Below the pieces are notes generated by a model. It saw nothing but the letters and a program-made list of their open reading frames with translations, made no database searches and was not told the DNA's origin. From Plasmodiophora brassicae (lineage: Eukaryota), in NCBI GenBank assembly GCA_036867785.1, contig CP145413.1:1488001-1544657 (forward strand): a DNA stretch of 56,657 bases, in the 5' to 3' direction. Position numbers and translations under genes: made by a program. This document shows, one piece after another, positions 1,718 through 56,657 of the stretch (its first letter is position 1; each line of letters opens with the position of its first letter).

Positions 1718-1861
1718 CGTTGCCCGTTCCCACCAGAGGTGCGGCTGTGCCGATTCCCGGCAGGCCCTGCTGGGCGCGCGTCCCAAGTCAGATACAGCAG
1801 GGGACAGCTGATCAGAGAGGCCACGCCCCGAACCTGACATGGCCGCACGTTCGAATTTATG

Positions 1862-3115: not shown

Positions 3116-3351
3116 TGCGGGCGACTATGGCCCAGGGGCGGGCGAACGAGGAGAACAGGCTGACTTCTGATTACAGGAACAGACGTGCGGCAGGGTTGCG
3201 CTAGGCTGCGCCAGGTCGAACTTGCCCTGGGTCGTTCATTCGTGCCATGTCAGTCACCGACCCTTCGTTCTCCCAATCGTTCTGTGCGAAACGTAGACCG
3301 ACTCGACGGCAGGTCGCATGGTATACGCCGACCCGCTGGCGCCGGTTAAGC

Positions 3352-4392: not shown

Positions 4393-4501
4393 CGCTGGGC
4401 GGCGCCGGCCACCCGTCGTCGAGAGACCTGGTGGCCGCGCCCTCCCCCGCCGAATGGCACCATCATCGTCCCACAGAATCCCAGATTGTGTGTGTGTGTC
4501 C

Positions 4502-5893: not shown

Positions 5894-6266
5894 GTCTGGC
5901 GAGTTTGCAGACGCTGCCCTGGAGGAGGCAGCGAGAGAGAGATATCGGCGTCTCGCCCCGACGATAGGCTGCGCGTCTGAGCGTATGGCCGCGCTCCCTC
6001 AGCCGCCGTCCACTACCAGCACCATGTTGGGCCGCTGCACTGACCGCGAAAGGGGAACCAGACAGCAAAGTCAGCGCGTCGCCAGAGTGACCTCGCCCAT
6101 CGCCGAACCTCCCGTGTGGCACAGTGCCCTGATCCTGTTCAGCGTTGGTCTCGGCAGCGCCATGCTGTAGTGGGTCGCGGGAGGAAGGCCAGCCGACGCG
6201 CGGACAGATCGGTCGAGCGGCCTCGCCACTGTTCAACGCCACTAATCAGACAGTCGTTGTGAGGCA

Positions 6267-7553: not shown

Positions 7554-7585
7554 CGGCGACACGCCCACGTATACAGCAAACGAAT

Positions 7586-9045: not shown

Positions 9046-9160
9046 GTGGTCCTGCCTGCGGCGACCATTTTATGGGGGGCGGCACCCGCAGATGAACATG
9101 ATAAAGCGGGGGTACCACCCGGAATGTTCATCCGGCACCCGTTGTACTGCTGCAGGATGG

Positions 9161-10372: not shown

Positions 10373-10559
10373 GGGCGCGCTGGAACGCCAGGCGATCCTG
10401 AGCAACCAGCCCTGGGGAGTGTGGAAATATATTCACATTATGTTCCGCACCGCGCCGTACCCCTCTCCAAAAATTGCGCATTGGTTTTTGGCGAGATACT
10501 GATTGAAATTCGCGGACCTGTAGCGTCGACGACGTATGTACCTTGCGTACGGACGACTT

Positions 10560-11023: not shown

Positions 11024-11220
11024 TGTTCATCCAGAGTACCAGTACTCAGATGATGCTGCTCAGATGCTGCTGCCACCCGGTCACATGATCATGACCGTAC
11101 TCGACCCCGCAGCGGCCCTTGCTGTGACGATCCTGTCCAAATACATCAGTTCGTTATATCACCAGGCGCCGACTCTTGCGACCGACCGCCCCCGTAGTGG
11201 GCAGCGGCGGCGTTAGCACA
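11024..11220 (+). repeat. 5' LTR
   Basis: TGTTCATCC...GTTAGCACA, apparently identical to 16163-16359. Confidence 0.97.
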
Positions 11221-11263
11221 GAAGCTTCTTGCGCAAAGAGCCCCAAGCAAACGAACTCACTTA

Positions 11264-16153: not shown

Positions 16154-16162
16154 CACGGGGAG

Positions 16163-16359
16163 TGTTCATCCAGAGTACCAGTACTCAGATGATGCTGCTC
16201 AGATGCTGCTGCCACCCGGTCACATGATCATGACCGTACTCGACCCCGCAGCGGCCCTTGCTGTGACGATCCTGTCCAAATACATCAGTTCGTTATATCA
16301 CCAGGCGCCGACTCTTGCGACCGACCGCCCCCGTAGTGGGCAGCGGCGGCGTTAGCACA
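16163..16359 (+). repeat. 3' LTR
   Basis: Direct repeat of 11024-11220. Confidence 0.97.
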
Positions 16360-37779: not shown

Positions 37780-39363
37780 TCAAATATGTCGTACGAATGT
37801 AGTAATTGAAGTCTGGCGACGTGCAGAGAGGTGGCGTCGGACGGCCTGCCAGACTTTGCGGACGCCCGTTGTCAGCTTGGCGTTGTCGAAATCGGCGACA
37901 GGGACCCATCGGGTCTCTGTATCCGTACCAGAAGTGACGGCCGGGTCGCTTGGGAACCGCGCGTACGTGATGTCAATGGTCATACGAATGTGGGTGAAGA
38001 TATGTTGAACGGGTCCGATTCCGCGATGGACAGCAAGAGCGCTGTCGTCCGTCAGAGCGCGATCGAGCTGGTCGCCAAACCGCTCCCAGCAGGGAAACGC
38101 CCACTGCCCGGCCAGTAATCCTTTACAGGCCCGCTTCACAAGAAGAACACGGCCGTCAGATTCGACGCAGCAAACGCGAGTGCTCTGCTCAGTGACGCGC
38201 TGTTTCAGTTTCTTCAACGGGTACCTGGTCACGACGCCAACAGGGTCCGGGATGTCACCTTCAGCACAGCAGACTGTGCACATTTCAATGTCGCTGGTGA
38301 TACCGTTGCGGTTATGTGCAGGACGGCTTGACTGACATCCCTCCTGCCTGGCAAGGCAAATCGACTCGATGGGACATGCCGAGCACGACGGGTTGTGTTG
38401 CGTGCAAACCGTGGCGCCCAGTTCCATCAGCGCCTGGTTGAAGTCCCCGGGACGCTCGTAGTCCACAATATCGCCTGCCAGCGCCCAGTGCAGCTAGGGA
38501 AAACAACTGAGCCAAACACGACGTCTGCGGGCAGATGGAGGGCGGCTTTACCTTGAGGGCGTTCGACGCATTCGGAGCCGCCGCGATGGCACGCACCCTG
38601 GATAGAACGCGAACCACGTTGCCATCGACTAATGGAACACGCTGGCCGAAAGCGATGGAAGCAATCGCCCCGGCGGTGTATTCGCCAATCCCGGGCACTT
38701 TCTTCAACCCTGCACCGAGTGACAGACGTTATATTTGCACACACAGACTCTGCTACTGCGGCCGACCTGGAACAGATGTCGGCAGCAGACCGCCGCATTC
38801 CTTCATTGCCCACTGAGCTCCTTCTAGCAAGAAACGCGCACGTCGATAATACCCAAGACCGGCCCACATTTCGTTCACGTCCTGCGAACACACGTATCAG
38901 TACTACCCAGGGTCAAAGATCATCGACGAGCACATCGGTTACCTCCATGGATGCAGATGCGAGATCTGCAATTGACGGGAACCGTTTCATCCATCGTTCA
39001 TAATACGGAATCACCTGAATCAGCAGACATGTCAACAGAGCAACGCACCGTGCAACGGCCGGCGTCGTACCGTATCAACTCGAGTCTGCTGGAGCATGAC
39101 TTCCGATACCCAGACCGCGTAAGCGTCGCTGGGCAGCGATCGTCCCGGTCTATTTATCAATGGTGAATTCGCATTCGCACGTTAGTAAATCTTCTCAAGA
39201 CAGACGATGGGTTGTCATAAGGCGGTTTGTCGCCTCTCCAAGGCAGGCACCGCCGATGCGTATCGAACCATGATAGCAGGTTAGCCCGCACCACGGGGAC
39301 CTCGTCATGGGTGAACGTGTGATATGCCGAGGCATGCCCCTCTTGCCGACACCTCTTCGTCAT
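37780..39363 (-). CDS. MUTYH: A/G-specific adenine DNA glycosylase, multi-exon
   Basis: [28 protein letters not shown], Hh[28 protein letters not shown], Fe-S motif [17 protein letters not shown], and a Nudix-like C-terminus. Confidence 0.95.
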
Positions 39364-39756
39364 TGTGCGCAACGCCGACGGACCACCCACCCAGCCCAAC
39401 GCAATGAGCGCGGAATGCCTTTTACATGCGCTTTACGCGGTGTGGACAACGAGAAATGACAGTGAAGCCGGTGTGTGGGGACCGCGCCTGGTGTCGTATA
39501 CGAACTTTGTTCGTGTGGCGGCGATCCACCTCCAGATCAACCGCTTTATCAGGCGCGTGAACTTTCGGTCAACGTTAACGCCTCCAACAACTCATTGGGC
39601 GTGCTGTGCTCTGCCAAACGTGGCGATATCTGTGACAAAACGTCGAACTTAGTACTCTGGACAACGACGTCGACTTCTGCGTAAGTACGGGACGGCTGGG
39701 ATCCGGTCAATTCACTCGGACCCGACGGCGACGCGCGCAGACGTAATCGGGGACCA

Positions 39757-42700
39757 GCTGAAAGTAGGCGTCTCCGACTTGGACTACCGCCTGTGGCACC
39801 ACGTCCTGTACACAGGAGAAGTCAGATATTCCAAGGCATCCATCCATCGCCGTTGTCGGCCCTGTACCTACCACCGTCGTCTTGCGGCGCGCCACAGAAA
39901 CCGTCTGGCCATCGGGACCTGTCTCCTGGACAACTGCAATGGGATCTTGCCGCACCAGCATAACCTGGCCCTCTTCCACCTTCCCCTTCATCTGGCGCAG
40001 CGTCGTGCAGCGGTGCTCCACGTCCCATCCGGAATTGCACGGTCGTTCGGAGGAGCACCTTCTGGCGAGCGTCGTCGTGTGGTCACTGACAAGCGCATCG
40101 GCGAGGGTCGTCCGGCTCCGCGAACCACTCAACATAACAACCGGGAGCTCGCAGGGCGGGCGCCTAGAGGCATGGTCGCAGGTTGCGCAAGTGTCGACGA
40201 CGTGCTCAATGAACACAACAATCGATCTCTCGATCGGTTGACCATTGGCCCAGGTAACGGCGTACGCATCATCTGCTGCAACAGCTCCAGTGCGAAGTCG
40301 TCTGCGTCGTGTTGTTGTCCGGCATCGAACGACCTCGTCGCCAGGTCAGCCTCGCTGACGACCTTGCTGAGGTCCACCAGAGTATCGGACGCCACTTGCA
40401 GATCCAGACGTGGGTTCATCAGATGGTTGTACGTAGGGGTGAGCCCAAGGTGCGGGCCCGGAGACACATTGCCAGCCGGGCAAAGCCCGCATGATCTGGA
40501 TTGGTCCGATGGCGTAGCAAATATGGAACGACAGACGCCTGCCGCATCATTGTTCGAAATGCCCGCTGGCATCAACGATCTGGCGTCATGCTCCTAACAG
40601 CCCCGTTAGCGTCGACGATGCCGTTCAAGGCAGCGTCCCGTACCTGTGGAGCACGTTGCGCTTCTTCGATCAGTTCGCGGTCGACGTGTGGTACGGGCCG
40701 GCTTGCATGCTTGCCAGGAGATTGTTCGCCTTCCTGCGGACAACGCTAGCGCGTTAGACGTCGTCATCGCCTCCGTGCCGGCGTTGCCAATTTCGAACCT
40801 GATCTGGTGCCTTGAAAGAGCGGTCTGCAAGTCCAGCAGCAAATGTAGTGGCCCTCTTGTGTTGTGCCTACAGCGAGCGGACGGTCAGTAAAACAGGCCA
40901 TACGGGTACAATCATCACCGACCGGTGCACGCGGAATGCTGCGCTTGTCAGCAGGGTCCTTGATCACTGTCATCGGCGCAGGCGGCGGCGCTTTCTGCAA
41001 CGTCATGCCGGTTAATGATTACACCCAACCCGGTGTACGCTGTAGTAAACTGACCACAGGGCGTGTCTTTGTGGCACAACGCTTTGAAAGCTTGCCTGCT
41101 TGACAGTAAAGTTTGCTCTGCGTCACACACCCATCGTTAGCATACGTGTCTGCCAACACTGGCCTAAACAGTTACCTCGCTCTCTCGCGATGTCGACTGA
41201 CACAGGTCGTTTGTGTCTCTCGACGATTCATCGCGGTCGCTCTCCGTGCTTGACATAGAACGAGGTCAGCAGCGGCCTGTTGGCAGTGCAGTGATCAGTA
41301 CACCCATTCGTGCCCAGCCATTCAGTCAGCAACGAACGATTCGCCTGCGTTTGCCAGACGCGCGTCTCTGCAGTCTTGTGGCGCGCCGACTCGCCCGCGT
41401 GCGACGAGCAGGTCCATTGCCGTCGGCTGACGCGTCATCATCAATGTCCTTGTCCAGCTGGTCGGCCCGGTTGCCCCGGCGCTGGCGAATGGCAGCCACG
41501 TACGCGCCCACCATATCGTCGACGATGCCGCGAAACCTCGACGACGCTCCCTCAGTCATCGGCCTTGGTCGCGAGTCCAGGATGATCAGCTCGAACGCGT
41601 TTACGAAATATTCATGCGCGCGCTTCGAGCTCAGGCCGAGCTCGACGAGCGTGCGGCCCACAGCGCCGATCCGCGCTAGAGCGTGCTTATAAGGCGCGCC
41701 AATCGATGCGTGCAGCGCCGCACGTCTGCAACAGGTCGTCGATGACGATGACATGCTCAACGGGGTCACGAACGGCGTCGTGTCGACCGGCGCCGACGTA
41801 GGTCAGCACGCCGGGGCGCAGCGCACGTGAGTGATAGACGAGAATCAGAATAGTCGACAGGTCGACGGGAGGCGGCCACGCGTCCTTGACCGCCTTGACA
41901 GCGGCGTGCACCTGCGACGACAGCGTCTTGTGGTCCTTTGACAATTGCACGATGGAATCGACCGCCGCCGACTGGACGAGCAGGCCGTTGTGCGGGTCGG
42001 CCAGGAACGAGCCCCAGTCGATCTAATTGGTGCAAGCGCCCCGCGCGTCCGGCGACGAGTGTAGGACGCCCTGTATGAGGGCCAGCGCCTCCCACAGCCA
42101 GTGACGCTTCTTGCTGCCCTGATTGGCCAACGGCAGGGGTACGTCCTGCCAACTCTCGTACGCATCCAACAACGTGACTGACCGTGATGCCAGCGGCAAC
42201 GCGCTCAGAGTCATCGGGTCAGACGACGCTGGCAGACTCACCACAGCCGATGGATCGTGAAGTGGCGGGACCAACATGACGACATCCGCCAATACGGCCA
42301 GATAACACGACGACGGCACACAGCGTCCATCGGGGCGAGCACGCATCGCTCGACGCTGGGCGACGGTCTTGGTCGCAGACGCCATCAGATCGGACACATA
42401 CTCGTCGGTGATATTGACTGGCGGCGGGTCGACCAGCGTGACGAACGGATGGATGACGCGCCCCGACCAGCGTTGCAACAGCGTCACCTGGATACCATCG
42501 CCACCTAAACGCTCCCTTGTCCTCGCGACCCTGTTCACCAACGCCTGCATCACTCGCTTGTCATCGAAACGTGACTCTGGAATGATTGACATGAAGTCGC
42601 GCCACAGTGCACGGTGTGGCAACCGTTCGAGTTCGTTGCGATCCAGTTGGAAAAAGTGATGGTTGGCAGCAACGACAGCGACGGATCGAGCGTCGACCCA

Positions 42701-43098
42701 CGCCTGCCGAGACGGTGCAGGGCGTCCAGCGACGGCATGAAGCCGGCGAAGAGGTAATCGTGCTTCTGGTCCAGGTCCGGTCGATCCAGAGCAACCCATA
42801 CACCGGGCGCCAGAGTCTTCCTCTTCGCCAACTGGTCGTACGTATACGCACCTTCAGTTTGTAGAGGGTTCAGAGAAATGGCGTCCGGAGTCAGCATTGT
42901 GCTCAGCCCTTTCTAGATGACAAGGAACCACGACTGGACCAAATAGTGGAACGCGTGACGGTTTCCCTTAACGGAGATCCGCAGTACGGTCGCCATCATG
43001 TCGTCGTAGTCGAGGCTGTGAATGAAATCCAGAAATTCGCCCTTGTTGATGACTAGACCCAGCGGATCCATGAATGTTTCGTCGACGAAGAAACGTCC
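39757..43098 (-). pseudogene. Decayed, doubly truncated paralog of the large-ORF/USP unit at 49727-55174
   Basis: Fragments such as TGRFFVDETFMDPL, LRISVKGNRHA, QTEGAYTYDQL, KRHWLWEALALIQGVLH, PAGISNNDAAGVCR and QHDADDF match the distal copy. It has frameshifts and an in-frame TAG near 42913. Confidence 0.85.
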
Positions 43099-43107
43099 GG
43101 TTTTAGG
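43099..43107 (+). repeat. Single telomeric repeat at a module junction
   Basis: GGTTTTAGG lies where homology to the large ORF stops and the non-LTR 3' UTR ends. Confidence 0.55.
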
Positions 43108-45755
43108 AACTTCTATTTGTATTTGTCAGATACAGCTAAAGCGTCGTGAGCTCGGCGGGAACGGACGTGAATAGGACAGGCTTGACTCGAGTGACAGGAT
43201 CGGCGGAGTGCGCAGCGTTCACGGCGGGCGCCATGAACGCGCGCGGCGCTCTATGTCGGCCGCACTGTGCCCGTCTAATGGCGACTGGACACGGCCGGGC
43301 GACGATGCAGGCGACGGCGCGTCGGGGCGCAGCGGCACACGAGCTTCATGCTGGGGTCCAGCGTCGGCTTCCGCCGGTCGCCCGGTCGCGTTGGCAATAC
43401 ATCTCATCACGATGGCCGTCATTATCGCCGTCGGCGAGAGATGGTGGGCGCGTCGACGAACTCGGGCATCGGCATCGATCTCTGGGCCGGCTATGTCCGC
43501 ACCGCCCAGGAACCCGACCAGTGCAGGGTCGTCGAGGACGTGTTCGGCGACTTCAACGGCGACTCGCGCGTTCTCGTTGTCCTCATCGTCGCTGATCTCG
43601 TTCCATAGCGTCGCGTCCAGGCCAGCAAGCGCAGCGACGCCCTGAGCGGAGATGGCGAGCGACTCGCCGCGGATGCAGCGGGCGGCAACGGCGCGGATGA
43701 ACGTGCCCAGGACGGCCAGCCAGCGTCGCTGGCGATCGCTCAGCCGAAACGTCGGGTCGCGCGGATCCGGCATGCGGCGCGGTCGTAGACGGTCGTCTTC
43801 TCTGGCGGGCGGCGCCGTCAGGCGTGCGTAATCGTTGAGCTGGATGGCGACGTAGTCGATGGCGACGCCCGTGTCCGCCCTGTTGAAGTGCAAGGCACGG
43901 ATGCGCCAGTCGATGATTGGCCTGAGCAGGCGCGACGATTCAGTGCAACGGGCAGCAATGTGATACCTCGAGAGGTTCTTGTCGTTGCACGCCCGGCACT
44001 GGGCGTTCGAGCCCGGTATGCGGTTCGTGACCCATGAAGCCACCGCATATGCGTCGTCGCCCGAGTGGTACGCCGCCGGAAACGGGAGGTTATACGGCTG
44101 TAGCTGCAGGCGCATCAGCTTGCAGGACGCATCAGCGGCAGCCCACGTGTGGAGCTCGAGCGCTTGCAGCAGGGCGTCTTGCCGATCGGGCAGGCGTGGG
44201 CGCTTCCGCGTCGGGCGGCCGGCTTCGGCGTCGGCGAGTTCTTCACGGGCGCGTTGCTCGCGGGCGTCACGGCCGTTCCTGTAGATGGCGGTTGCGTCCG
44301 CGTAGACCTTGCAGCCCTTCAGCATCATGTTGAATCGGCTGCGCGGGTTGCTGAGCGCCCAGCGCGTGACGCGGACCAGGAACGGGACGCGATCGCCATC
44401 CTTGATCTGCTCCGACCACGTGATCTGCTTGAACGCGAACCGGGCGCGCAGCTTGGCCTGGCGGGCAGCGGCGGGCACGAGTCCCGCGTACCGGAGCATC
44501 AGGGACGAGCCGATGCGGCGGCGGTATCCACCGAAGAACAGGGCGGCGGCCGACTTCTGCAGCTGGTCGAGCTTCTTCAGTAGGCCGACGTGGCTGTTGC
44601 TGATGGCGAGTCCGTACTCGGCGCGCGAACGGATCCAGGCGCCGACGACGCGCGTCTTCCGGACGATCGACAGGTGCTTCGTGCTGAACACGCCCGAGTG
44701 CATGATCCCGATCATGGCCTTCTCGGCTTTGGCTGTCCGCGAGGCGAGCTGGGCTCGATGATCGAGGCGACCATCCTTCATGACGACGCCCAGGAAGCAC
44801 ACCGGCTTGTCGAGCTCGTGCTCCTCGACGACGCGGTTGCCGCCGATGGTCAGGGCTGCCGGCTGCGCGGCGGTCGACGTCCTCGGCCTGGAGACGATCG
44901 ATTTCGTCGCGTTCCACTCGAGTTCGTGCCGCTGCGCGTACTCCTGACAGAGGTCCATCATGGCCTGGGCCATCTGGTCGGTGAAGGCGTGCAGCAGGGT
45001 GTCGTCGGCGTAGAACTGGCAGGGCACCGGCATGTGGTCGAACATCGGGGCCTCGTCGCCGAACCGCGACACGATCAGGTACGGCAGGTCGTCGATCAGG
45101 ACGTTGAATAAGTCAGGGGAGCCAATCGCGCCCTGGAATAGGCCGACGAGCGCGGCGATCCGCTCGGACAGCTGCCCGTCCAGAGCAATGATGAAATGGC
45201 AGCCGTCAAACAAGGCCTGCAGAACGGCGATGATATGTGCAGGTACGCCTCGTCTGCGTAGCTTTGAGTAGACATGAATGCGGCGGGCGCTATCATACGC
45301 CTTCCTCATGTCGAGGAGGACCTCGATCAGCGGCTTGCGTCGTGCCGCCCAGTGGGTGGTCAGCTCGTCGGCCACCCACACGGCTTCGGGGACACCGATG
45401 CCTCGCCGAAATCCAAACTGGAGGAAGTGCATCTGCAGCCACCCCTTCAGGTGCATGTACGTGATCAGACACGTCTCATATGCCTTCCGGAGGTGGGACT
45501 GCAGCGCAATGCCTCGCCAGTTCGACGGGTCGGCGGGTTCGGTGTTCCGTTTGTGCACGGGCACAACGAGCGCCGACCGCCAGTCAGACGGCACGAGCTG
45601 CACAGTGTACAAGCAGGTGAACATGCAGGATATCCAGGGGCCGGCGGCATCCGGGTCACACTTCAGGAGGTCCATCGGTATGTTGTCCGGGCCGACCCCC
45701 TTCATCCACTCATGCCGTTTGATGAGTTGACGGTGTGAACACGGTGTCCGATACC
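43108..45755 (-). mobile_element. 5'-truncated non-LTR retrotransposon
   Basis: RT ORF plus about 110 nt of 3' UTR, no poly(A), with telomere-like sequence on both sides. Confidence 0.85.
43219..45705 (-). CDS. Non-LTR reverse transcriptase with C-terminal CCHC knuckle (N-terminally truncated)
   Basis: KGVGPDNI, NWRGIAL, QFGFR, LDMRKAYDS, GLFQGAIGSP, catalytic FYADD, FLGV and CRACNDKNLSRYHIAARC. Confidence 0.92.
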   Translation of the reverse strand: MKGVGPDNIPMDLLKCDPDAAGPWISCMFTCLYTVQLVPSDWRSALVVPVHKRNTEPADPSNWRGIALQSHLRKAYETCLITYMHLKGWLQMHFLQFGFRRGIGVPEAVWVADELTTHWAARRKPLIEVLLDMRKAYDSARRIHVYSKLRRRGVPAHIIAVLQALFDGCHFIIALDGQLSERIAALVGLFQGAIGSPDLFNVLIDDLPYLIVSRFGDEAPMFDHMPVPCQFYADDTLLHAFTDQMAQAMMDLCQEYAQRHELEWNATKSIVSRPRTSTAAQPAALTIGGNRVVEEHELDKPVCFLGVVMKDGRLDHRAQLASRTAKAEKAMIGIMHSGVFSTKHLSIVRKTRVVGAWIRSRAEYGLAISNSHVGLLKKLDQLQKSAAALFFGGYRRRIGSSLMLRYAGLVPAAARQAKLRARFAFKQITWSEQIKDGDRVPFLVRVTRWALSNPRSRFNMMLKGCKVYADATAIYRNGRDAREQRAREELADAEAGRPTRKRPRLPDRQDALLQALELHTWAAADASCKLMRLQLQPYNLPFPAAYHSGDDAYAVASWVTNRIPGSNAQCRACNDKNLSRYHIAARCTESSRLLRPIIDWRIRALHFNRADTGVAIDYVAIQLNDYARLTAPPAREDDRLRPRRMPDPRDPTFRLSDRQRRWLAVLGTFIRAVAARCIRGESLAISAQGVAALAGLDATLWNEISDDEDNENARVAVEVAEHVLDDPALVGFLGGADIAGPEIDADARVRRRAHHLSPTAIMTAIVMRCIANATGRPAEADAGPQHEARVPLRPDAPSPASSPGRVQSPLDGHSAADIERRARSWRPP

Positions 45756-45801
45756 TTTAGGGAATGATTTAGGGGGGGTGGGGGGGGGTCCAAAATGGAC
45801 C
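45756..45801 (+). repeat. Telomere-like/G-rich junction with hairpin
   Basis: TTTAGGG AATGA TTTAGGG, then G-runs, then the GGTCCA-AAA-TGGACC inverted repeat. Confidence 0.6.
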
Positions 45802-46399
45802 AGGCAAACTCCGCTTCGGAACCACTGGGAGAGTCGAAATCGTGCAGGAGCCACGATATGAACGTCCGCGCACCACTGCACCATCACGGCAGGACATCTT
45901 GATACGTTCGCGAGTGCACACTGTCTGGCAAACTCGGACGTCAGCCAGACAATTCGGGCCGTGTGCGGCCGGCGAACGTCGGCATGACAGAGAATGTCGG
46001 ATTCTATTCTGCTGATGTGTATCGAGCGTGTCGCAGACCGCGTCCAGTTCTGTTGCAGGGCACGACATCGGTCGGGTTACTGTCGCTTGTGTTTATGGTG
46101 TGTATGCGGATGGATGGCGATATACGTCTGTGTTCGATGCTATCCCCAGGACAAGTACGATGGGCGTAGACACACCCATCGATTGAAGGTGGGCGCCAGT
46201 CAACGTCAAGGCAGCCGCCGACTCCGTGGCGGGCGTCGTCGGCGCGACTGACGACCCGACGACGTCAACACTGCCGGCCGATGAGTAGGGCCGTCTGACA
46301 GCTGACAACGCATGACGCAAGAAGAAATCGGCCCAAAAAAATCGCATTTATGGACCCAGTTTTTTGGGACGTTAAGCCCCTTTGCCGAGCAACGTTGCC

Positions 46400-49300
46400 G
46401 CTTTAGCTTTCGCCCACGCCGGTGGCGGCAGTATGGGACCTGTGGACGACATCGCGCCTCCGGCCGACGGATGCCGTGTCGGCGTGAATCAGTCGCCGAC
46501 TCCGTGTTGCGCTGCGACTGACGACGCTGACGATGCAGCCGATCGCCCACGTCCCCTGCCAATCGCCGACGATCCGACGACCAAGCCGGTGGTCGACGCC
46601 GCCCACTACATCGCCGTACACGGCTTCCCGATACGCCACGATGTTCACCATCGCACCTCGCCGATCGCCGACGACCTGTCGCGACCGCGTGCCCTGCCAG
46701 TGTCTGCGCCGTAAGCCGTTGCACCTCGAGGACAGGTACGAGTCATCGTTTGTTGCACAGTGTCCCAGGCCCTCTGACGCGTTCGACACCGCCCTTATGC
46801 AGTCTCATGCCGTCGAGTCGGACCAGGTCCAACATGACCCCGGCGTGGTGGCTTCCGACGCTTGGAACAATTGGTCATGCACGCCCCATGCCCGGCACCA
46901 TGCGTTGATAGCGGGCTAACCAGTCGATGTCGTCGCCGGCCTCCCTGTCTGCGTGTCGAGCGGTGCCTGCCTGCTGCGTTGTGTTCGTCCTCGCGTCTCT
47001 CGAGTCGTCGACGTCCCGAGGCGCCTGCTCGCTGTTCCTGCGATCGACTGTGACGTAATCGATGCATCCCACTGGACGTATGCCAACGCGCCCAACACGT
47101 CTGGACGACGCCATGCTCCGGTACGGACCGCTGTCTAATGCAAATGATCACGGCCTCACACGTTCTGCACAGGACACTGCCGTCGCCAGTTACGACGCTG
47201 CCGGTCGTCAATGCCGCCCACTACATCGCGATATTCGACTAAGTTCGCGTCTGCAGGCTGCGGGTCCCCAACGACCCGTCGTGCTGCTCGCCGTGCTTAC
47301 GTCCGCGTCGAAGTCACCGCCGAGCACCGACATGGGCCAACGGGATCACCTGCAACGCGACCATAAGGGGGCCTGCTGGGCTTCTGTGCATCTCCTGGTC
47401 AGGAGCGTGTCGTTGCCAAGATGCCCCATCGCCTGATACGGCTGCCTGCCCTGCTTGCGTCCGCGCCGACGTCGCTGCGACCGGGCCAACACATCGTCTA
47501 CTAGGACAGCGGAACGTGATCATCTTCCTTAAGCGCGCCCAATATCTCTGGGTGCGATTCCAGGACAGGTATAGTTTCTCGGCTGATGCGATATGACCTT
47601 CGCCTCTGACATGTGATGAACAGGCTAAGCCAGCTGCCGTGGGACGTCGCTTGTCCATCATGGGAGCCTTCAAGCAGCCGTGGTTCTGCCAAATTGTCAT
47701 TCTGCTCCACACGTGACGCGGTCGACTGCCCCACCCTAGCCGCCGGATGCAATTCGCCGTCTGCCCTGAACCGTCCTGCGATGACGGGCCCCGCATGCAA
47801 GTGCGTCGCCGCCTCCCCCATCTGCCTGGTCCGCTGCGTCTGCCAACTCTGCTGGTTGCCCAGCAGGGCAGCGGTGCCCAGCGCCCGTTGCTGCCGGAAG
47901 CCTCGCGGACACCTGACTTCCGACGACGATCGTCCAGCATCCCTGACGCTATATCCCGATAACCGTGAACGTTGAATACATGCTGCACCTGTTGACATGC
48001 GCGTACACCCACATGTGAAGTGCTTCCTGGCGTCAACTGGCGCGTCCGGCAGAGTCCGCTGCAGTCGTTGTAGGGCAGGGTGCCCGTCGCCGAACGAGAG
48101 CGGCGACGCTGCGTGCGCCTGCGTGACGAGCATGGCCGATCAGTCCAATGCAACGCGCACGCACGACAGTTGGATGCGCCCAGTCAACGCGCATCGTGGC
48201 GCCCACTTCTGCACGCACGTGCCTAGATGCGCCCACGGGCCGAGTCGAACGTCTCAGATGAATCGACATGCCACGACGACGTCCCGCTGCCAGATTACGT
48301 ACTGCAATGGATGCCAGCGGCATTGACTGTCGACCTCTGTCGTGGAGTGCCCTGGATTGTCACCATTGTTGACAGAGAGACCAGCACAGTGCAATGTCCC
48401 CGCCCCCGTTGTCAGACGTTGCCCTTTCAAGGACGTGACGTAATGTGATCGGAGGGTACTTACTCGACTTTAAACGAGGCGAGATCGTACGTACTGATCG
48501 AGTTCCGTGTCGGTACATGGTTTTCCAATGGACGCTGGCCTCGGCGAAAGTCCAGCAGGGCGCCCCACTCCGTACTAGCTGCGTGGTCGTCGACGACCCG
48601 GCTACGCTGCCAACGTCGTCCACTACATCGCCGTACACGGTTCAACGGGTGTTCTTCGCCGTCGCACATCGCGGGTCCCCGTCGACATGCCGTGCCTTCC
48701 CGTCCTGCTTGCGTCCCCGCCGACATCTCCGCCGACCCGATCGGCAAGGGCCAAGGCGTCCCCTACGAAGGCAACGCATCCTGCTGCCGCACAGTATCTC
48801 TGGATCTACTATATCCAGAACAGGTAAGTCGTATCGTGTATGACAGGCGGCCATGGGCTCAGACATGTGATGAACAGGAGACTGCATCCGTATGGCGGGC
48901 GTTGCCAGCGTTGCGGCCACCTGCTCCACACCTGGGGCTATCGCATGTCGCGAATCCCCGACGACACGTCCACGCCGACGTCGCCGCCGACCATATCGGC
49001 ACGTGTAAAACGCATCCCCGGGGAAGGCAATGCAACCTGCTGCTGGTGTGTCAACGCGCTCAGTACCTCTGGATGAAGTATATCCAGAACAGGTACGCCG
49101 TAGCGCGTATGACCAGCGACCATGACCTCTGACATGTGATGGACAGGAGACGGCAGCCGTAGCTGTACCGCATCGTCAGGCTTGCGACCACCTGGTCCCA
49201 CGCCTGAGGCGACGCCTACCCCCTGTCGATCGCTGCGGTTGGTCGTTCGCGTCCCTGCCATAAACCCGTCATTCCATGTCGGCCACAGCGAGCAAGGGCG

Positions 49301-49650
49301 CCGCCAGCGCCACCGTCCGCAAGCCCAGCTGCGCATGCCTACGCTGCTGGTTGCCCAACGTCCATTTCTACCGGCCGCCACGCGAACGCCTGCTATCTGA
49401 TGACGATCGCCACCATCCCGGCCGGCGTATCGCGGCAACCAGGACCGTTCAATACAGGCAGAACCAGTTGTCACGCGTGTACACCGGCCATGCATGGCTT
49501 CCTGGCGTCAGCTGGTGCCGACCAGAGCAGGGCGGGACGCCGTCCGTCCCCAGCGTGTTCATCGACGTTGCGCCCGTCCCTTCATGTCGACGCATATGAA
49601 ACCCATCCCATGACGTTGCCATGCCTGGTTAGGCCAAGCAATGCCTACCC
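46400..49650 (+). pseudogene. Diverged tandem repeats of an unknown intron-containing gene
   Basis: Three copies of an exon-intron module (RAQYLW..YIQNR followed by GT...GACATGTGATGRACAG) and larger duplicated blocks (about 47780-48050 vs 49270-49520). Confidence 0.55.
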
Positions 49651-49726
49651 TTACAATCGACCATCGACGCTCTCGATGCTGCACCTCAAACAGACCCGTC
49701 CCGTGTGTTAAGTTACAAATACAAGT

Positions 49727-51221
49727 TTATGAACGGATACCATTGCATCTGTAGAAGAGCAGCCTGTAGACGCGCTTGTGGAGCAGGCTAGCCACTTGGG
49801 ACTCTCCATACCGCACTAGGCGATTGGTGTCGCAGAAGACCCAGGAACCACCGGGTTGCTTGACCCAGGATATATAATGCCCTTCATCGTGCCCAGCCAA
49901 TTGGGTGTCACTACCCTGGTAATCGACCAGGCCAACGAGATCGAAGTACGCTCTGCCAGTCTGAAACGTCACTTCTGGCACCACGTCCTGCCCACAGGAG
50001 ATATCAGACATCCAAGAGATCCACCCATCATCATCGCTTGATGTCCTGCACCTACCACCGTGGTCCTACGACGCGCCATGCTGATCTGCGCTCCGTCAGG
50101 GCCGGGTTGCTGGACGATCTCCATCGGATCCTGCCGAACAATCAACAGTGACCCCGGCGTTGGACTCCTGGCCATGTGGCGGAACGTTGTCGACCGGTGC
50201 TCGACATCGTGACCAGGTTGGCAGGGAACGTTGGAGGTGCACCTCCTGGTGATCGTCTCCGACTGCTCCCCGACCAGAACCGTTGAGAGTTTGACTCGCC
50301 GGTGGCAGCCCTGCAGCATGACGACGGGCTGCTGACAAGGCGGGCGCGACGAGGCATGGCCGCAGGTGGCACACGTATCAACCACGTGTTCGACGAACTC
50401 GACGAGACTGCCAACAATCGGCTGTCCATCAGCGCCCACCATACGGTATGCCTCCATCTGCGATAGCAGTTCCAGGACGAAGTCGTCTGCGTCGTGCTGA
50501 TGTCCGGCAGGAAACGACCGTGTCGCCCGGTCGGCGTTGCCCAGGCTGCTGATGAGCTCAACGAGCGCGTACGACGCCACGTTCGCATCCAGGCGGGGGT
50601 TCATCACCTGGTTGAACAGGCCCACCCAGGGCGCGTCGCCCGACACGCGGTGCCATCCAGGCAAACGACGCAGGATATGGACCGGTGCAATGGCGAAGCA
50701 AATCTGCCGGCAGACGCCGGCCGCATCCACGTTCGATATGCCCGCTGGAAGTAGCGTGTCAGCACCACACTCCTGAACGTCAACTTCAGCAGCGTCGATG
50801 ACAATTGGATCGCGTTTCGTACCTGCGCAGGAGGTTCCGACCCTTGGGCGGGATCGCTGTGGGCGATTCGTTCGGTGCGGCTCGAACGGTCGACAGCAGG
50901 TCGTTCGTGGACCTGCAGTTATTGCACGCATGTCAGCTGTCTCCCTCGCCACAGTACCGGCGTTGGCAATTGGCAAACCTGTCTGCGCTTCCTCGCTGGG
51001 CGTTTCGCGAGGAGAGCCACTTGAACCCTCCTCCGCTTGCAAGTAAGCTTGGGTGCCTGCAATGTCACGGGGGTTCAGTCTACACCCCGCTCGCAATACC
51101 TTCTAACCCAAATCACCCTGTACTCCGACGACCTGGAGGACGACTCGCAAACGTCGTTCGTGTCCTGGGACGGTGCGTCGCTGTCGTCGTCGCTCGACAT
51201 CGGGTCCACATCCATCGTACT
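49727..51221 (-). CDS. Ubiquitin-specific protease-like (peptidase C19) domain, spliced
   Basis: Cys box GISN...QICFAIA, QHDADDF, CATC Zn ligands and His box GHYISWVK..W..CD. The GTAGGT..CAG intron at 49988-50055 joins the two ORFs in frame. Confidence 0.8.
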
Positions 51222-51241
51222 CTGTTCAGGCCCACAGTGGA

Positions 51242-54200
51242 TCAGCAGGATTGCACAATCAAGGCGAATATCATCAGTACACGTACAGTTCGTCGGCACC
51301 TGATTGCCGACCGGTTCTGCAGTAGTGCTGCCCGCCGACTGGTTACTGTCCTGCGTACGGGGCGGCGCTCGTCACCGGCGTCGTCTCCTGCACCGCCGTC
51401 CTCAGATCCGTTGGCACCGGCAACGTCGATGCCGCTTCGCCGCCTTCGGACGGCGTCCAGGTACATCGGCACAAGCCGGGCAACGAGCGACGCGATCCGC
51501 TCAACGACGACATCGTTCTGGCGCCTCGACGTCAGGACGATGAGTTCGATCGCCACCAGCAAGACGTCGTAGGTGTGCTTCGTCGCGCACCAGACCTCGT
51601 TGAGCTTGGCGCCGACAGCGCCGATCAGCATGAGTTCGTGGGCGAAGTCGTCCCACTCAACCGCGCCTGCGTCCAGCGACCTGAGGACCGCCGACATGTC
51701 GACGACGTGGTCATCGCCGTCCCGCTCGTCAGCGTTCCTCTTCTCACCCACGTACGTCAACACTCGTCGACCGAGGCCGCGCGCATGGAAGATCATAAGG
51801 ATGATCCTCTGCTGCAGGCCCCACTTGGACAGGTCCACGGGTGACGGCCACAGACCAGACACGCTCTTGACGAGTTTGCTGACCTGCGTCGACATCTGCC
51901 GGGGCGACTTCGACAGTTCAATCGTGTCGTCGACGCAGGGCCTCTGAACCAGCACCGCGTTGTGTGGATCGCCCAGGAACCCGTCCCAATCGACCAAGAC
52001 CGGGGTGCCTTTCCCGTCCTTCCTCGAATGCATCACGCCCATGATCAGGGCCATGGCTTCCCACGGCCAATGCCGGCGATGCTTGTTCCCGTGGAAGGCG
52101 GACGGCAGCGGCAGCTCCGCCCACGACCCTTGAGCCTGCGCCAGGGTGACCGACCGCGACGACAGCGGGACCTTGCTGATCTGCAGCGATCCAGCTGACG
52201 TCAACGGTACGATCAGGTCGGGATCACAGAGTGGCGGGACCAGCATGACGACCTGCTGGAGGATGTTCTTGAACTCGGCGGTAGGCACCCATCGACCCGC
52301 CGGACGCTGGCGCAGTGCACGACGCTGGGCCGGGCTGCTGTCGCCGGACGCCATGAGCATGCGGAGATAGGCGTCGGTGACTCGCTCCGGAGGCGCATCA
52401 ACAAGGACGACGGGAGGATGTACGACACGGCCATCCCAGCGTAGACGCAACGACACGTGAATGACATCACGCCCCAGGGCTCGGCGCCTGCCTTGTACCC
52501 TCGTCACCAACGCGCGCATGACGTCGGCCTCTCGGAAACGACTAAGCGGCACGATGGACATGACGTCACGCCAGAGCGCTACGTGCGGCAGCGTGTCCAC
52601 GCCGGGCGACATCCAATTGAATGCCACCCACTCGGCGAACGTGATGTGTTGCATCGACGCGACTGAGGGGTCCAGCACGGATCCAGGGCTCGCCAGGCGA
52701 TGCAGGGCGGCCGGTGACGGAAGGAACGACTTGAACAGATAGTCGTAGTCCTGGTCGAGGTCTGGGCGATCAAGCGCATGGCTGACGTACGGCGCGAGGA
52801 CCTTCCTGGACCGCAGCTGGTCGAACGCGTACGCGCCCTCTGTCTGAAGCAGGTTGAGCGCCACAGCGGCTGGCGTCAACATGTCCGAGAGCATCGACGA
52901 TAACGTTCGAAACCAGGAGCGGACCAGGTAGGTCAACGCATGCCGGCACCCCTTAACCGAAATCCGAAGGATCGTCGACATCACGTCGGCGTTGTCGAAC
53001 CCATGGATAAAGTTCAGGAACTGGCCCTCGTGAATGCGCAGGTTTAAGGGGTCCATGAAAGCTGGATCGATGAACACCCTGCCGGCCGACATGCAGAAAT
53101 TGACGTAATCCAGGCGCGTCCCGGGCGACATCCACACGCCGACATTGCTGTCAGGGGTACCGCCCTGGAAGAACCGGCTTGCCGAGATGAACGAACCGTC
53201 GAGCAGTGCGTTCAGCAGGTCCTCCATGAACTGCAGGCAGTTCATCTGCCGCCGATCAATGTTCGTGACGAACGGTGATCGGCGCCCGCCCTCGATGGGT
53301 CGGAACATGGCCCGATACATCAGACGGGGGAAGTGGGCGTACTGCTCATGTTTCCGCAGAAGATGGGCCCAGAAGTCGTGCGCCGCGATGCACAGGATCG
53401 TGTCGTCGTCGTTCAGGTGGGCAACTTCGCGCCACATCGACTGGAACACAGCGCCGCGCATCGACAGGTTTGCGATGTACTCGCAGCGGTGAACGACGGG
53501 GACCCTTTCGCGCATCATCTGGCGGCACCATCGTATTCTCTGCGTCATCGACCTGTGAACCGGCTTGAGGGCTCGCTTCACGTCCGTCTTGCGGATCGGC
53601 CCGTACTTCCTCAGAGACCGCGGCAACGAAGCGATGAATTTACGAGTGTTACCGCGATCGAAAGACGCCCGCACACAGGCGCTGAATGTGGCCAGGTGCG
53701 AGTAGCGCACAGGCGCCGCCAGTATTCGTGATCGATCTCTTGTGCGTTGAGACACTGTCGCATTGTACGCTGATCTCGCTGAAGCCATTGTCGAGCCGCA
53801 CCGCGTTTTACATCCCCCAAACGCGGCAACCTCACCGATCGGGTAATAGGAGTGGGATCGCGCAGGAGCGCCGCGGTTGGCGTCTCGGTCGCGTAGAGCG
53901 CTGTAGTCGCGACAGACGGCCACAGGTGTCTGATCCGGAAACGGCTCAGCGGCCACGTTGCTGCCAATGTCAAACCGGCCGCAGTCAACGATCGCGGTCG
54001 GCCAGAACGTTCGGAGGTAGTGGCGCTGCTCCAGGATCGAGCCGACGTTGTCCATCCTCGTAAATGATCGAACGCCCAACGATTGCATCAGAACCATCGT
54101 CGAGTCCTGCAGGTACAATGCCAGTGTGTCCAGCATGGTTCGCGCGTCTCGCGGCGCGAACCGTACAGGACGCTTGTGGTTGTTGTACTGCTGGCTGTAG

Positions 54201-55174
54201 TCGACGAGTTCGTCGGGAAGTCGATCAGAGCACGCGGCGATGGCCTCGCTGACTGCGGCGCGGCAGGAACTGGAGAAGCCGCGTCGTGTCGAGTGACGAC
54301 TCGTACTCACCAGGAACAACGTGATCGTGGCCATTGGCGAGCAATACACTTCACCGAGGAGGAACATGGGAAACTTGGTTATCGGCGTTGGACGCGGTTC
54401 GCCTTCCAGCTGCACCCGAAGGTCGTGAAATGTGCTCCCGTTGACCGCTTGGCGGCCAGCGTGCCGTCCCCAGGCTGTCATCAAGTGCAGCGACGTGAAC
54501 GCCGTTGCCCTCTCGAGCGGGAAGACCTGAAGCCATCGCTGGAACGACGTACAAATGGCCTGAAGCGAATCGACGTCCATGGTCTGGAGAATGTCGGGCA
54601 CGCCGCCATGCCTCTCAGACGCTGCGCGTGCCTCGGCTGAAACATCGAAGCGGTACTTGCCAGAGAAGCAGTCGGCTTTCGGTAGCCCATGCTGTGTCCA
54701 GAACAGGTCACCAGCGAAGTCTTGCAGACTAATCGTCTCAAACGCGCTGCAGTCAGTATGCGGTTGGCTTCCCCTTGTCAACTGCTTTTCTTCCGATTCA
54801 GCCAAGAGGGCGAAGGACGGATCCGCGCCATAAGGGTTACCTAACCCGACCTGGCCGTCATCGGACGCAGCAGCATCGTCTTCCGAAGAAACCGTGCCAG
54901 ATGAGTCCGACGAAGGCGCTCCATCGCGGTCGTCATCACCTTGAGCGGTGGCCCTCCTTGAATTGTCTTCAGGTACGCGGACGCTGCCACCAGCGTCGTC
55001 ACCGTCTTCCGCTTCGACATCGACTTCGTCGGCTGCGGCCAGCTTCTGCCGTTCCCGGATATCGCGAAGATAATCAAACGTTGTTCGCGAGAAGGAGTCG
55101 GAACTAACAGCATCATCGTCGCTGTCTCGGTTCGTGTTGCACAGGCCGACGGGAACCCCGGAAGAGTCACACAT
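51242..55174 (-). CDS. 1310-aa protein of unknown function
   Basis: Long uninterrupted ORF with an acidic N-terminus. Its coding status is supported by amino-acid-level conservation with the paralog at 41.3-43.1 kb. Confidence 0.8.
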   Translation of the reverse strand: MCDSSGVPVGLCNTNRDSDDDAVSSDSFSRTTFDYLRDIRERQKLAAADEVDVEAEDGDDAGGSVRVPEDNSRRATAQGDDDRDGAPSSDSSGTVSSEDDAAASDDGQVGLGNPYGADPSFALLAESEEKQLTRGSQPHTDCSAFETISLQDFAGDLFWTQHGLPKADCFSGKYRFDVSAEARAASERHGGVPDILQTMDVDSLQAICTSFQRWLQVFPLERATAFTSLHLMTAWGRHAGRQAVNGSTFHDLRVQLEGEPRPTPITKFPMFLLGEVYCSPMATITLFLVSTSRHSTRRGFSSSCRAAVSEAIAACSDRLPDELVDYSQQYNNHKRPVRFAPRDARTMLDTLALYLQDSTMVLMQSLGVRSFTRMDNVGSILEQRHYLRTFWPTAIVDCGRFDIGSNVAAEPFPDQTPVAVCRDYSALRDRDANRGAPARSHSYYPIGEVAAFGGCKTRCGSTMASARSAYNATVSQRTRDRSRILAAPVRYSHLATFSACVRASFDRGNTRKFIASLPRSLRKYGPIRKTDVKRALKPVHRSMTQRIRWCRQMMRERVPVVHRCEYIANLSMRGAVFQSMWREVAHLNDDDTILCIAAHDFWAHLLRKHEQYAHFPRLMYRAMFRPIEGGRRSPFVTNIDRRQMNCLQFMEDLLNALLDGSFISASRFFQGGTPDSNVGVWMSPGTRLDYVNFCMSAGRVFIDPAFMDPLNLRIHEGQFLNFIHGFDNADVMSTILRISVKGCRHALTYLVRSWFRTLSSMLSDMLTPAAVALNLLQTEGAYAFDQLRSRKVLAPYVSHALDRPDLDQDYDYLFKSFLPSPAALHRLASPGSVLDPSVASMQHITFAEWVAFNWMSPGVDTLPHVALWRDVMSIVPLSRFREADVMRALVTRVQGRRRALGRDVIHVSLRLRWDGRVVHPPVVLVDAPPERVTDAYLRMLMASGDSSPAQRRALRQRPAGRWVPTAEFKNILQQVVMLVPPLCDPDLIVPLTSAGSLQISKVPLSSRSVTLAQAQGSWAELPLPSAFHGNKHRRHWPWEAMALIMGVMHSRKDGKGTPVLVDWDGFLGDPHNAVLVQRPCVDDTIELSKSPRQMSTQVSKLVKSVSGLWPSPVDLSKWGLQQRIILMIFHARGLGRRVLTYVGEKRNADERDGDDHVVDMSAVLRSLDAGAVEWDDFAHELMLIGAVGAKLNEVWCATKHTYDVLLVAIELIVLTSRRQNDVVVERIASLVARLVPMYLDAVRRRRSGIDVAGANGSEDGGAGDDAGDERRPVRRTVTSRRAALLQNRSAIRCRRTVRVLMIFALIVQSC

Positions 55175-55175
55175 C

Positions 55176-55219
55176 AGGTTTTTTAGGGTTTTTTAGGTTA
55201 GGGTTAGGGTTTTAGGGTT
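55176..55219 (+). repeat. Interstitial variant telomeric tract
   Basis: AGG T6AGGG T6AGG TTAGGG TTAGGG T4AGGG TT, with the same polarity as the terminal telomere. Confidence 0.93.
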
Positions 55220-55225
55220 CGTTCG

Positions 55226-55369
55226 TCGGCATGCCCAACGCGACCACGACCAGGAATGGCGGACACCCGCGCACTGCGGCGAGCTGCATGGTGCAGCTCC
55301 TTATGTCCCACCACCCCTTGGCGGCCCTGGTTTCGCCTTCGGCTCATCAGGTTATCGCGTTGGTGCCGT
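55226..55369 (-). ncRNA. Type I hammerhead ribozyme
   Basis: Stem I CCAACGCGAUAAC/GUGGUCGCGUUGG, core CUGAUGA (55350-55344), stem II GCC-GAA-GGC, GAAA, stem III CCAGG/CCUGG, cleavage triplet GUC (55250-55248). Confidence 0.88.
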
Positions 55370-56384
55370 CCCGGCGAATGTTGTCATTCCCGGGCTTTTC
55401 CCTGCCGGACCTGTGCGTCCTTTCGGTGAATGTCATCCCATCGGCGGCGTGATGCGGCCGTGGGGTATCAACTGATTTAACATCATTGGATTGTCGATTG
55501 CAGCGTGGGCGGCCGCCTGCCCTGCTGTATTTGCCATTAATTATGCGTTTGCACGCGCTGTTGGCTATGTCGATCGTTGATCTGCCTCTTGCGGCAGTCA
55601 GCGTCGTGTTATATTTGTCTAGGACGTGCTGGAAATTCGTTTGCAAGAAGTTCCATCGTGTGTCGGCGCCTCTGTGGGGCCGCACACTGAAGAAGTTCGT
55701 GCTGATCTTCTCCGTCTTTTCCATTAGCCATGCTCGGTCTGTGAACTGATATGGCGTTTTCGATCTGATGATCTTACTGGAGTATCCACGTCTCCTTAGT
55801 TGCTTCCTGAATTTCCCCATTTCTGCAATGAAGGTCTTTCTATCCGCGGTCCCTCGCAGGATGCGAATATTCTCTCCAGTAATCCACGAACATTTCGTTA
55901 GCTCTGGCTTGAATGTCGTGTAGTGGTTGAAGCATTTGTTATTCGTTGGCTTAGTGTATGGTTTGAAATCCAGTAAGCCGAGCGTAGCGTAACGGCGTCC
56001 TTTGTAGATGGTGAGATCTAGAAAGTTCACTGTGCTCCCCATTTGTTCGATGTTGAACTGCAGTGTGCCGTACGATGATAGGTGTCTGGTGAGTGCTTTC
56101 ACCTTCGCTATCTTTTCAGTGGCAATGATTGTGTCGTCTCTGTACCGGCGGTACAGGTATGGCTTGAGGTGGGGGTGCTTCCTCCATGCTTCCTCTTCCA
56201 TTGCTGCCACGACTAGGTCGGCAAAGACGCCTGAGACGTTGCTTCCCATGGCGGCGCCTTGCACCTGTTTGTACCAGGTGTCGCCGTATACGAAGTAGTT
56301 GTTCTGTAGTACCCATTGTAGGACGTCTAGTATGAGTTTGTGGCACGGGATGTGCCCTCGTTCGAGCAGTGGTTCGATGAGTTC
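55347..56384 (-). CDS. Penelope-like reverse transcriptase (partial, open at the 5' end)
   Basis: The frame extends upstream of the listed ORF (LQWVLQNNYFVYGDTWYKQVQGAAMGS). It includes catalytic YRRYRDD, NFLDLTI, PYTKPT and the thumb motif LRRRGYS. Confidence 0.92.
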   Translation of the reverse strand, partial: ELIEPLLERGHIPCHKLILDVLQWVLQNNYFVYGDTWYKQVQGAAMGSNVSGVFADLVVAAMEEEAWRKHPHLKPYLYRRYRDDTIIATEKIAKVKALTRHLSSYGTLQFNIEQMGSTVNFLDLTIYKGRRYATLGLLDFKPYTKPTNNKCFNHYTTFKPELTKCSWITGENIRILRGTADRKTFIAEMGKFRKQLRRRGYSSKIIRSKTPYQFTDRAWLMEKTEKISTNFFSVRPHRGADTRWNFLQTNFQHVLDKYNTTLTAARGRSTIDIANSACKRIINGKYSRAGGRPRCNRQSNDVKSVDTPRPHHAADGMTFTERTHRSGREKPGNDNIRRDGTNAIT

Positions 56385-56657
56385 TTAGGGCTTAGGGTTT
56401 TTAGGGTTAGGGTTTTAGGGTTTTTTTAGGGCTTAGGGTTTTTTTAGGGTTTTTTAGGGCTTAGGGTTTTTTAGGGTTTTTTAGGGTTTTAGGGTTTTAG
56501 GGTTTTAGGGTTTTAGGGTTTTAGGGTTTTAGGGTTTTAGGGTTTTAGGGTTTTAGGGTTTTAGGGTTTTAGGGTTTTAGGGTTTTAGGGTTTTAGGGTT
56601 TTAGGGTTTTAGGGTTTTAGGGTTTTAGGGTTTTAGGGTTTTAGGGTTTTAGGGTTT
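56385..56657 (+). repeat. Telomere (TTTTAGGG)n with proximal variant repeats
   Basis: Variant T2-7AGGG and CTTAGGG units to about 56486, then regular TTTTAGGG to the end of the window. Confidence 0.98.

Follow-up and report, generated by a model that had tools for sequence, protein, structure and literature searches.

In this study we examined one chromosome end of the rhizarian Plasmodiophora brassicae that appears to be built from mobile and subtelomeric modules joined at telomeric repeats. The window, meaning the whole stretch of DNA analysed, comprises 56,657 nt of contig CP145413.1 (positions 1,488,001 to 1,544,657, forward strand) and ends in a telomere. Beyond the housekeeping gene MUTYH (identified by HHH and NUDIX_4 domain matches) follow, from the inside to the tip, a damaged copy of a cassette made of a large open reading frame (ORF) and a ubiquitin-specific protease (USP) gene, a long interspersed nuclear element (LINE), an intact copy of the cassette, an internal telomeric tract, and a Penelope-like element (PLE) directly below the terminal telomere. 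Re-examination reproduced the order, the coordinates and the polarity of all items given in a preliminary description of this DNA. The minus strand is the coding strand of all four modules as claimed there, although the upstream genes MUTYH and PGM share that strand. The frame of the PLE is identical in 344 of 345 residues (99.7%) to PBRA_009616 of P. brassicae, and the TTTTAGGG telomere agrees with that species as well (10.1101/2024.04.03.587992; PMC6823432). Comparisons with other P. brassicae copies were made with protein records only.

At the tip lies an endonuclease-less (EN-minus) PLE (55220..56384, minus strand), whose reverse transcriptase (RT) frame (55347-56384) encodes 345 aa. The RT is of the PLE type, with weak RVT_1 matches and relatives that carry a DKN motif. 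A motif scan found GIY-YIG in none of five proteins of the PLE family, the 957-aa relative P0071 included, and Pfam gave no GIY-YIG match in the PLE proteins, the P. brassicae element being seen from the start of PBRA_009616 onward. Towards its 3' end the element carries a putative type I hammerhead motif (55235..55363, minus strand; core at 55350) with 12 of 13 possible pairs in stem I, three pairs in stem II and six in stem III, the last of which holds a long insert of ~70 nt. Cleavage at its GUC site is predicted after 55248. This is the sole hammerhead core with a stem II on either strand of the whole window, and it lies 15 nt from the telomeric tract. Because Rfam gave 0 matches within 39000-56657, hammerhead included, the assignment rests on the core motif and the three stems. 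The stop codon of the PLE (55347-55350) is at the same time the UGA of the hammerhead core, and the end of the ORF and the ribozyme thus overlap. At its other end the element is terminal, with the 5' end cut and capped by telomere at 56385. Longer copies are represented by PBRA_009616 and P0011, with 84 and 11 more N-terminal residues, respectively, RT motif A included. The copy in the window lacks at least 84 N-terminal residues, RT motif A among them, and since it is cut at the telomere and has lost this motif it would be unable to work alone. The terminal telomere itself (56385..56657, plus strand, 273 nt) shows variant units at its base and continues as (TTTTAGGG)n, while the internal tract (55176..55219, plus strand, 44 nt) consists of ~5 variant units (T2 to T6 with AGG or AGGG). 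Both freshly seeded tracts, 55176-55219 and 56385-56480, open with variant units (T2 to T7) before regular TTTTAGGG; CTTAGGG is one variant unit at the tip, within 56385-56480.

An RT without GIY-YIG, a 3' hammerhead and a telomeric-repeat 3' flank are features of Athena and Coprina (PMC8557442; PMC6431247), and the anatomy observed here fits every feature that these two sources give for EN-minus PLEs. In Ascochyta lentis, 13 chromosome ends show such features (PMC13159263). Terminal attachment of the PLE, as proposed in the preliminary description, is well supported by the position of the hammerhead 15 nt from the tract, the cut and capped 5' end and the lack of GIY-YIG, and the tip element would hence be a telomere-attaching EN-minus PLE of the Coprina/Athena type. 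When metagenomes were scanned, six of 241 candidates proved to be PLEs, all distant (28-37%) and none at a visible chromosome end; a canonical hammerhead core follows the RT frame in two of the six, and clear CCCTAA-like stretches are found there in two of the six. Four of these distant contigs (L001, L003, L004 and L006) repeat their own start near their end, as in tandem or circular forms.

Further inside, two short telomeric seams were found. At the first, GGTTTTAGG (43099..43107, plus strand), the alignment of the proximal with the distal large ORF reaches CCGG at 43097-43100 and is followed by TTTTAGG in telomeric register, the GG being common with the distal copy and TTTTAGG being new. 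GG followed by TTTTAGG at 43100 is the pattern expected of telomerase extending a GG seed, and de novo telomeres in Pyricularia are seeded on 1-4 nt (PMC7367193). The second seam (45756..45801, plus strand) starts where the alignment of the LINE to P0075, which extends to ~45753, comes to its end. It contains TTTAGGG at 45756 and 45768, the only two positions of this motif before 55,170, a G7-T-G9 run to 45788 and a 6-bp hairpin at 45787-45801. GGTTTTAGG occurs in a single copy before 55,170 (at 43099) and not at all on the opposite strand, and it is the sole G-strand repeat match of at least 9 bases in that range. Of 300 dinucleotide shuffles of 39757-55170, 4% contained a telomeric 9-mer and none (0/300) had two TTTAGGG copies within 20 nt of each other. 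Telomeric 7-mers have four matches in 39.7 kb, which gives each junction a background chance of ~0.24% of having one no more than 24 nt away. Because both sit where homology stops, chance is an unlikely source of the two short seams, and repeated breakage and telomere seeding is supported by seams that are rare and placed at the ends of homology. The G-run and hairpin at 45772-45801 were also considered as a terminal inverted repeat and rejected, as no partner copy was found in the window.

The element between the seams is a 5'-truncated non-LTR (long terminal repeat) retrotransposon, the LINE (43108..45755, minus strand), with RT and a C-terminal CCHC-like motif. This copy, with an open frame of 845 codons (43219-45756), starts just before the RT, and the apurinic/apyrimidinic-type endonuclease (APE) domain has been lost; APE and RT (Exo_endo_phos and RVT_1) are both present in P0075 and P0017, the two longest relatives. 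The nearest relatives are P. brassicae families at 39-48% and a 1,189-aa protein at 36%, whereas scans for the LINE gave 0 of 52 candidates in viral contigs and 0 of 60 in prokaryote genomes. Neither at 43108, the 3' end of the LINE, nor at 55220, that of the PLE, was poly(A) or poly(T) found. The longest direct repeat over the LINE ends is TTTAGG (43102-43107 and 45756-45761), a candidate target-site duplication, and the telomeric flanks of this single copy are compatible with a telomere-repeat target site. It had been suggested that this RT, too, attached its element to the chromosome tip. Terminal attachment of the LINE is not established, given its APE family and flanks that fit a 6-bp target-site duplication within one scar equally well. 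Since the LINE is from an APE family and has TTTAGG at both sides, the seams at 43099 and 45756 may be the halves of a single old telomere scar that its insertion divided, and not two layers; with the LINE removed, the scar reads as GG seed, full telomeric unit, five other bases, second unit and G-runs. Targeted insertion into telomeric sequence seems somewhat the best account of how the LINE came here, endonuclease-free terminal attachment is a distinctly less likely one, and coincidence would be improbable. A 14-nt sequence is shared with one mismatch and in opposite orientation by the 3' end of the LINE (43108-43121, plus strand) and the 3' untranslated region of the distal USP gene (49727-49714, minus strand). 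TATTTGTA has no further copy in the window, and the shared sequence might be chance or a 3'-processing signal.

The distal cassette lies between the second seam and the internal tract. Its intact, intronless large ORF (51242..55171, minus strand) encodes 1,309 aa from the first ATG, and because this ATG is 5 nt from the telomeric tract the sequence upstream of it is missing. Among 1.84 billion representatives it had 10 matches, namely the 990-aa P0001 (24%) and nine fragments, three of them from named P. brassicae. No Pfam, PHROG or PDB profile match was obtained for it and no Atlas match for it or P0001, and of 31 metagenome candidates for P0001 none held. Next to it is an intact USP-type deubiquitinase gene (49727..51215, minus strand; ~414 aa, five exons, 82% to PBRA_009550) with four GT-AG introns of 50-68 nt at the positions of gene model PBRA_009550. 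Cys, QxD, His and Asp boxes were all found, and the product is a putative deubiquitinase; UCH matches were obtained for P0077 (E 2.8e-8), P0076 (E 4.4e-5) and the last exon in the window (E 2e-4), next to weak Ubp8/USP14 matches. A frame change near 50,030, considered as damage to the distal USP gene, was dismissed because it lies within an intron. The usual USP Cys box has two residues fewer between Asn and Cys than the window copies; at the distal Cys box (50745-50710) the Asn-to-Cys spacing is the same as in P0076, P0077 and the other window copy. AlphaFold models were unusable for both proteins (mean predicted local distance difference test score 39 for the large ORF and 36 for the USP). 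Viral-contig scans were negative for the large ORF (0/97 candidates), the PLE (0/80) and the USP (0/600). The remaining ~3.9 kb of the distal unit (45800-49700) have no long ORF and a weak codon-position GC bias. They are filled with degenerate internal repeats (45802..49726, no strand assigned), 67-74% alike and spaced by ~270 and 1,400-1,500 nt, and when 45780-49760 was compared with the window in six frames, only low-complexity matches appeared. An A/T-tract hairpin-like sequence adjoining TTAA is found at 46330-46370 in this non-coding part. In the cassette as a whole we found no hammerhead core, no RT and no transposase match, and its end has no inverted copy in the window.

The proximal copy consists of a USP pseudogene (39752..41256, minus strand), which is nearer to PBRA_009553 and has three frame changes, and a large-ORF remnant (41473..43100, minus strand) corresponding to distal aa 703-1253. 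The USP gene is cut at 39752 before the His box and retains its last intron (39871-39806); the remnant is 49-61% identical over most of its length, with two stops and two frame changes. The proximal copy is indeed the more decayed one, with two stops, five frame changes and the His box lost while the distal copy is intact. Breakage on the tip-facing side had been claimed for at least three modules, and the proximal large ORF is cut there, but this innermost copy is cut at both sides. Between the two copies the rate of synonymous substitution (dS) is 1.3-2.5 and that of nonsynonymous substitution (dN) 0.3-0.5 in three blocks of 155, 309 and 200 codons (an out-of-frame test block, the fourth, with 27 codons, was left out). 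By these values the copies are evidently old subfamilies, not parent and daughter, and a dS of this size means that the distal copy was not copied from the proximal one. Because the copies are old subfamilies, the decay gradient gives no direct date for the layers and is merely suggestive of age.

Attachment of the cassette by an RT, a further part of the earlier proposal, is unsupported given four GT-AG introns, no hammerhead and no RT. Spliceosomal introns occur in both copies, one of them kept in both, and dS is far above dN. With introns and without RT or hammerhead, DNA-level capture is the simplest route for the cassette and seems to fit better than retro-attachment. Capture of subterminal DNA by failed telomeres has been demonstrated in Pyricularia (PMC8381367; PMC7367193). 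Our best guess for the cassette is a pair of fast-evolving subtelomeric genes that undergo birth-and-death evolution. The modules seem to travel together in the species, as can be seen from co-occurrences among PBRA records. PLE PBRA_009616 and LINE PBRA_009614 have consecutive accessions and contigs of equal size (14,447 bp), USPs PBRA_009550 and PBRA_009553 likewise come from contigs of equal size (20,279 bp), and the large-ORF fragment PBRA_009557 and the LINE fragment PBRA_009561 are four tags apart. In the gene model PBRA_004393 a LINE piece (15 of 22 residues identical) is fused to a large-ORF piece in the order seen here; the match is weak (E 0.001 within the window).

The layered end proposed in the preliminary description is thus real, with three layers likely instead of four and with known processes as the likely builders. 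We consider it probable that the end went through several rounds of breakage and rebuilding and grew stepwise, along three different routes. First, a break inside an old large-ORF/USP copy at 43100 would have been healed by telomerase extending the GG at the break. This short telomere would then have failed, and the end would have captured ~9.4 kb of another cassette, through end joining or copying of DNA, so that the scar came to lie internally. In a third step, for which the chances appear slightly better than even, a TTTTAGGG-preferring APE-type LINE might have nicked the G-rich strand of telomeric sequence and been copied in 5'-truncated, with TTTAGG at both sides, before or after the scar was internalised. 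Shortly upstream of the large ORF the cassette ends or was cut, and there it carries ~5 telomeric units; its position is plain, and the gain of these units would be the fourth event. The last step is well supported: an EN-minus PLE would have primed reverse transcription from the G-rich end via its hammerhead and telomere-complementary 3' end, and telomerase would have capped the element, its 5' part missing, at 56385. Priming on the G-rich strand could account for the polarity of both the LINE and the PLE.

Of the alternatives, the one that survives best, though we regard it as doubtful, keeps four separate layers: the LINE would have attached to an uncapped end without endonuclease and been cut and re-seeded, with the cassette added afterwards. 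The polarity of the LINE is compatible with priming from a G-rich 3' end and it has telomeric motifs on both sides; LINE and PLE end in C before the repeats, like most unseeded MoTeR truncations, and relics with telomere tracts at both ends are known (PMC7367193). However, two extra events are needed, each seam is one repeat long compared with 44 nt for the tract at 55176 and 273 nt for the terminal telomere, and the LINE family has an APE endonuclease. It seems rather unlikely that the cassette itself is mobile, either as a DNA element with an unrecognised recombinase or as a Terminon-like passenger of the PLE RT, with 45756-45801 as its 3' end. Many divergent, mostly fragmentary copies, a long intronless ORF under purifying selection, two telomere-like units with G-runs and a hairpin at the inner end, and the fact that introns are kept in PLEs (PMC4209133) would suit a mobile cassette. 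But it has no hammerhead core, no inverted end copy in the window and no transposase match, and the proximal copy ends at a different place. More improbable again are three independent telomere-seeking elements, namely an EN-minus PLE, an APE LINE outside the R1 clade that specifically cuts TTTTAGGG, and a novel type of mobile large-ORF/deubiquitinase cassette whose 1,309-aa protein joins the cassette to chromosome ends. Least probable is mere subtelomeric clutter, in which only the PLE and the 55176 tract are telomere events, whereas the motifs at 43099 and 45756 would have arisen by chance or belong to the LINE's own ends, since, although an LTR element holds the 7-mer TTTTAGG at 12720 as well and MUTYH and PGM share the module polarity, both motifs lie at homology ends (~0.24% each), the TTTAGGG pair appeared in 0/300 shuffles and the GG extension at 43099 is in register.

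Several points weigh against the stepwise, three-layer history that we prefer. The presence of telomerase in P. brassicae is inferred from T4AG3 arrays (10.1101/2024.04.03.587992; PMC6823432). The 9-mer taken alone is modest evidence (P about 0.04). The 6-bp target-site duplication is unproven because telomeric flanks share TTTAGG under any model, and a 6-mer is common to 11% of pairs of random 24-nt windows. For the G-runs at 45772-45788 we have no explanation, and part of them may be an assembly error. The innermost copy shows no telomeric motif at its centromere-side edge near 39757. The basis is a single chromosome end, and the other P. brassicae copies are known from protein records.

MoTeR elements are restriction-like-endonuclease (CRE/SLACS-type) elements, and the R1-clade elements SART and TRAS are of the APE type. 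MoTeR relics of Pyricularia, taken together with Coprina, seem to be the closest model for the end, rather than HeT-A/TART or Terminons. The PLE shares with Coprina/Athena elements (PMC8557442; Coprina-1_Alen, PMC13159263) an RT without GIY-YIG, a 3' hammerhead by telomeric repeats, the location at the tip and telomeric repeats at both flanks; it differs in its rhizarian host, the ~70-nt stem III insert and the truncated copy, and the likeness is one of anatomy. Like MoTeR relics (PMC7367193; PMC8381367), the LINE is a non-LTR element that is truncated at its 5' side, has a short telomere motif next to its 3' end and was probably internalised as other subterminal DNA was copied onto the end. 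The LINE here is of an APE family, in contrast to a CRE-type RT without APE, and target-site duplications were absent from the internal MoTeR relics studied in PMC8381367. With SART/TRAS it shares the APE family (P0075 and P0017; the window copy lost its APE). A place inside simple telomeric repeats, beside telomerase repeats, would be a further likeness to these elements of Bombyx and Tribolium (PMC10088271). SART/TRAS are R1-clade elements in long arrays, whereas here we see one copy, no poly(A) and a candidate specificity only. The earlier comparison with the Terminons of bdelloid rotifers (PMC6431247) holds for the 3' end of the PLE, with its hammerhead and telomere-complementary sequence, and for co-oriented units cut at the 5' side by short telomeric stretches, but not for the cassette. 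The hammerhead bounds the 1.2-kb PLE only, the cassette lies beyond the telomeric tract and lacks a hammerhead, and extra co-oriented ORFs within one hammerhead-ended unit were not found in the window. HeT-A/TART/TAHRE of Drosophila (PMC10088271) show the same head-to-tail polarity and 5' truncation; there, however, telomerase is replaced, and that comparison fails on the simple TTTTAGGG repeats at the tip, the lack of poly(A) and the lack of a single-family array.

Elsewhere in the window an intact Ty3/Gypsy chromovirus-type element (11024-16359, plus strand) has identical 197-bp LTRs (TG...CA), a CCCTT target-site duplication and a single frame of 1,651 codons that covers RT, RNase H, integrase and chromodomain; its expected primer site is taken up by a 10-nt palindrome (11220-11229). 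Near the start of the window, 191-10432 holds mostly intronless frames resembling glycosyltransferase or related membrane-anchored genes.

In the literature, supplements and repeat databases aside, we came across no account of PLEs or of telomeric LINEs for P. brassicae. The word 'Penelope' is absent from the main text of three genome papers, and no paper was found with the six locus tags of the module relatives. PMC12903343 describes the ends as gene-poor. The layered-end pattern is known from fungi and rotifers, and Rhizaria would be a new host group for EN-minus PLEs and MoTeR-style relics. Our findings would widen the known range of telomere-attaching PLEs with a hammerhead, and of internalised telomeres of the MoTeR style, to include Rhizaria, for which we found neither described. 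Several P. brassicae ends are hard to assemble (10.1101/2024.04.03.587992; PMC6823432), and a layered build-up is a possible reason for this. Two leads follow from the analysis: an APE LINE that may be telomere-specific, and a cassette of multiple copies that places a large family-less protein beside an unusual deubiquitinase. If ends in this species are indeed built up in layers, they would be predicted to be polymorphic between isolates and might be usable as markers.

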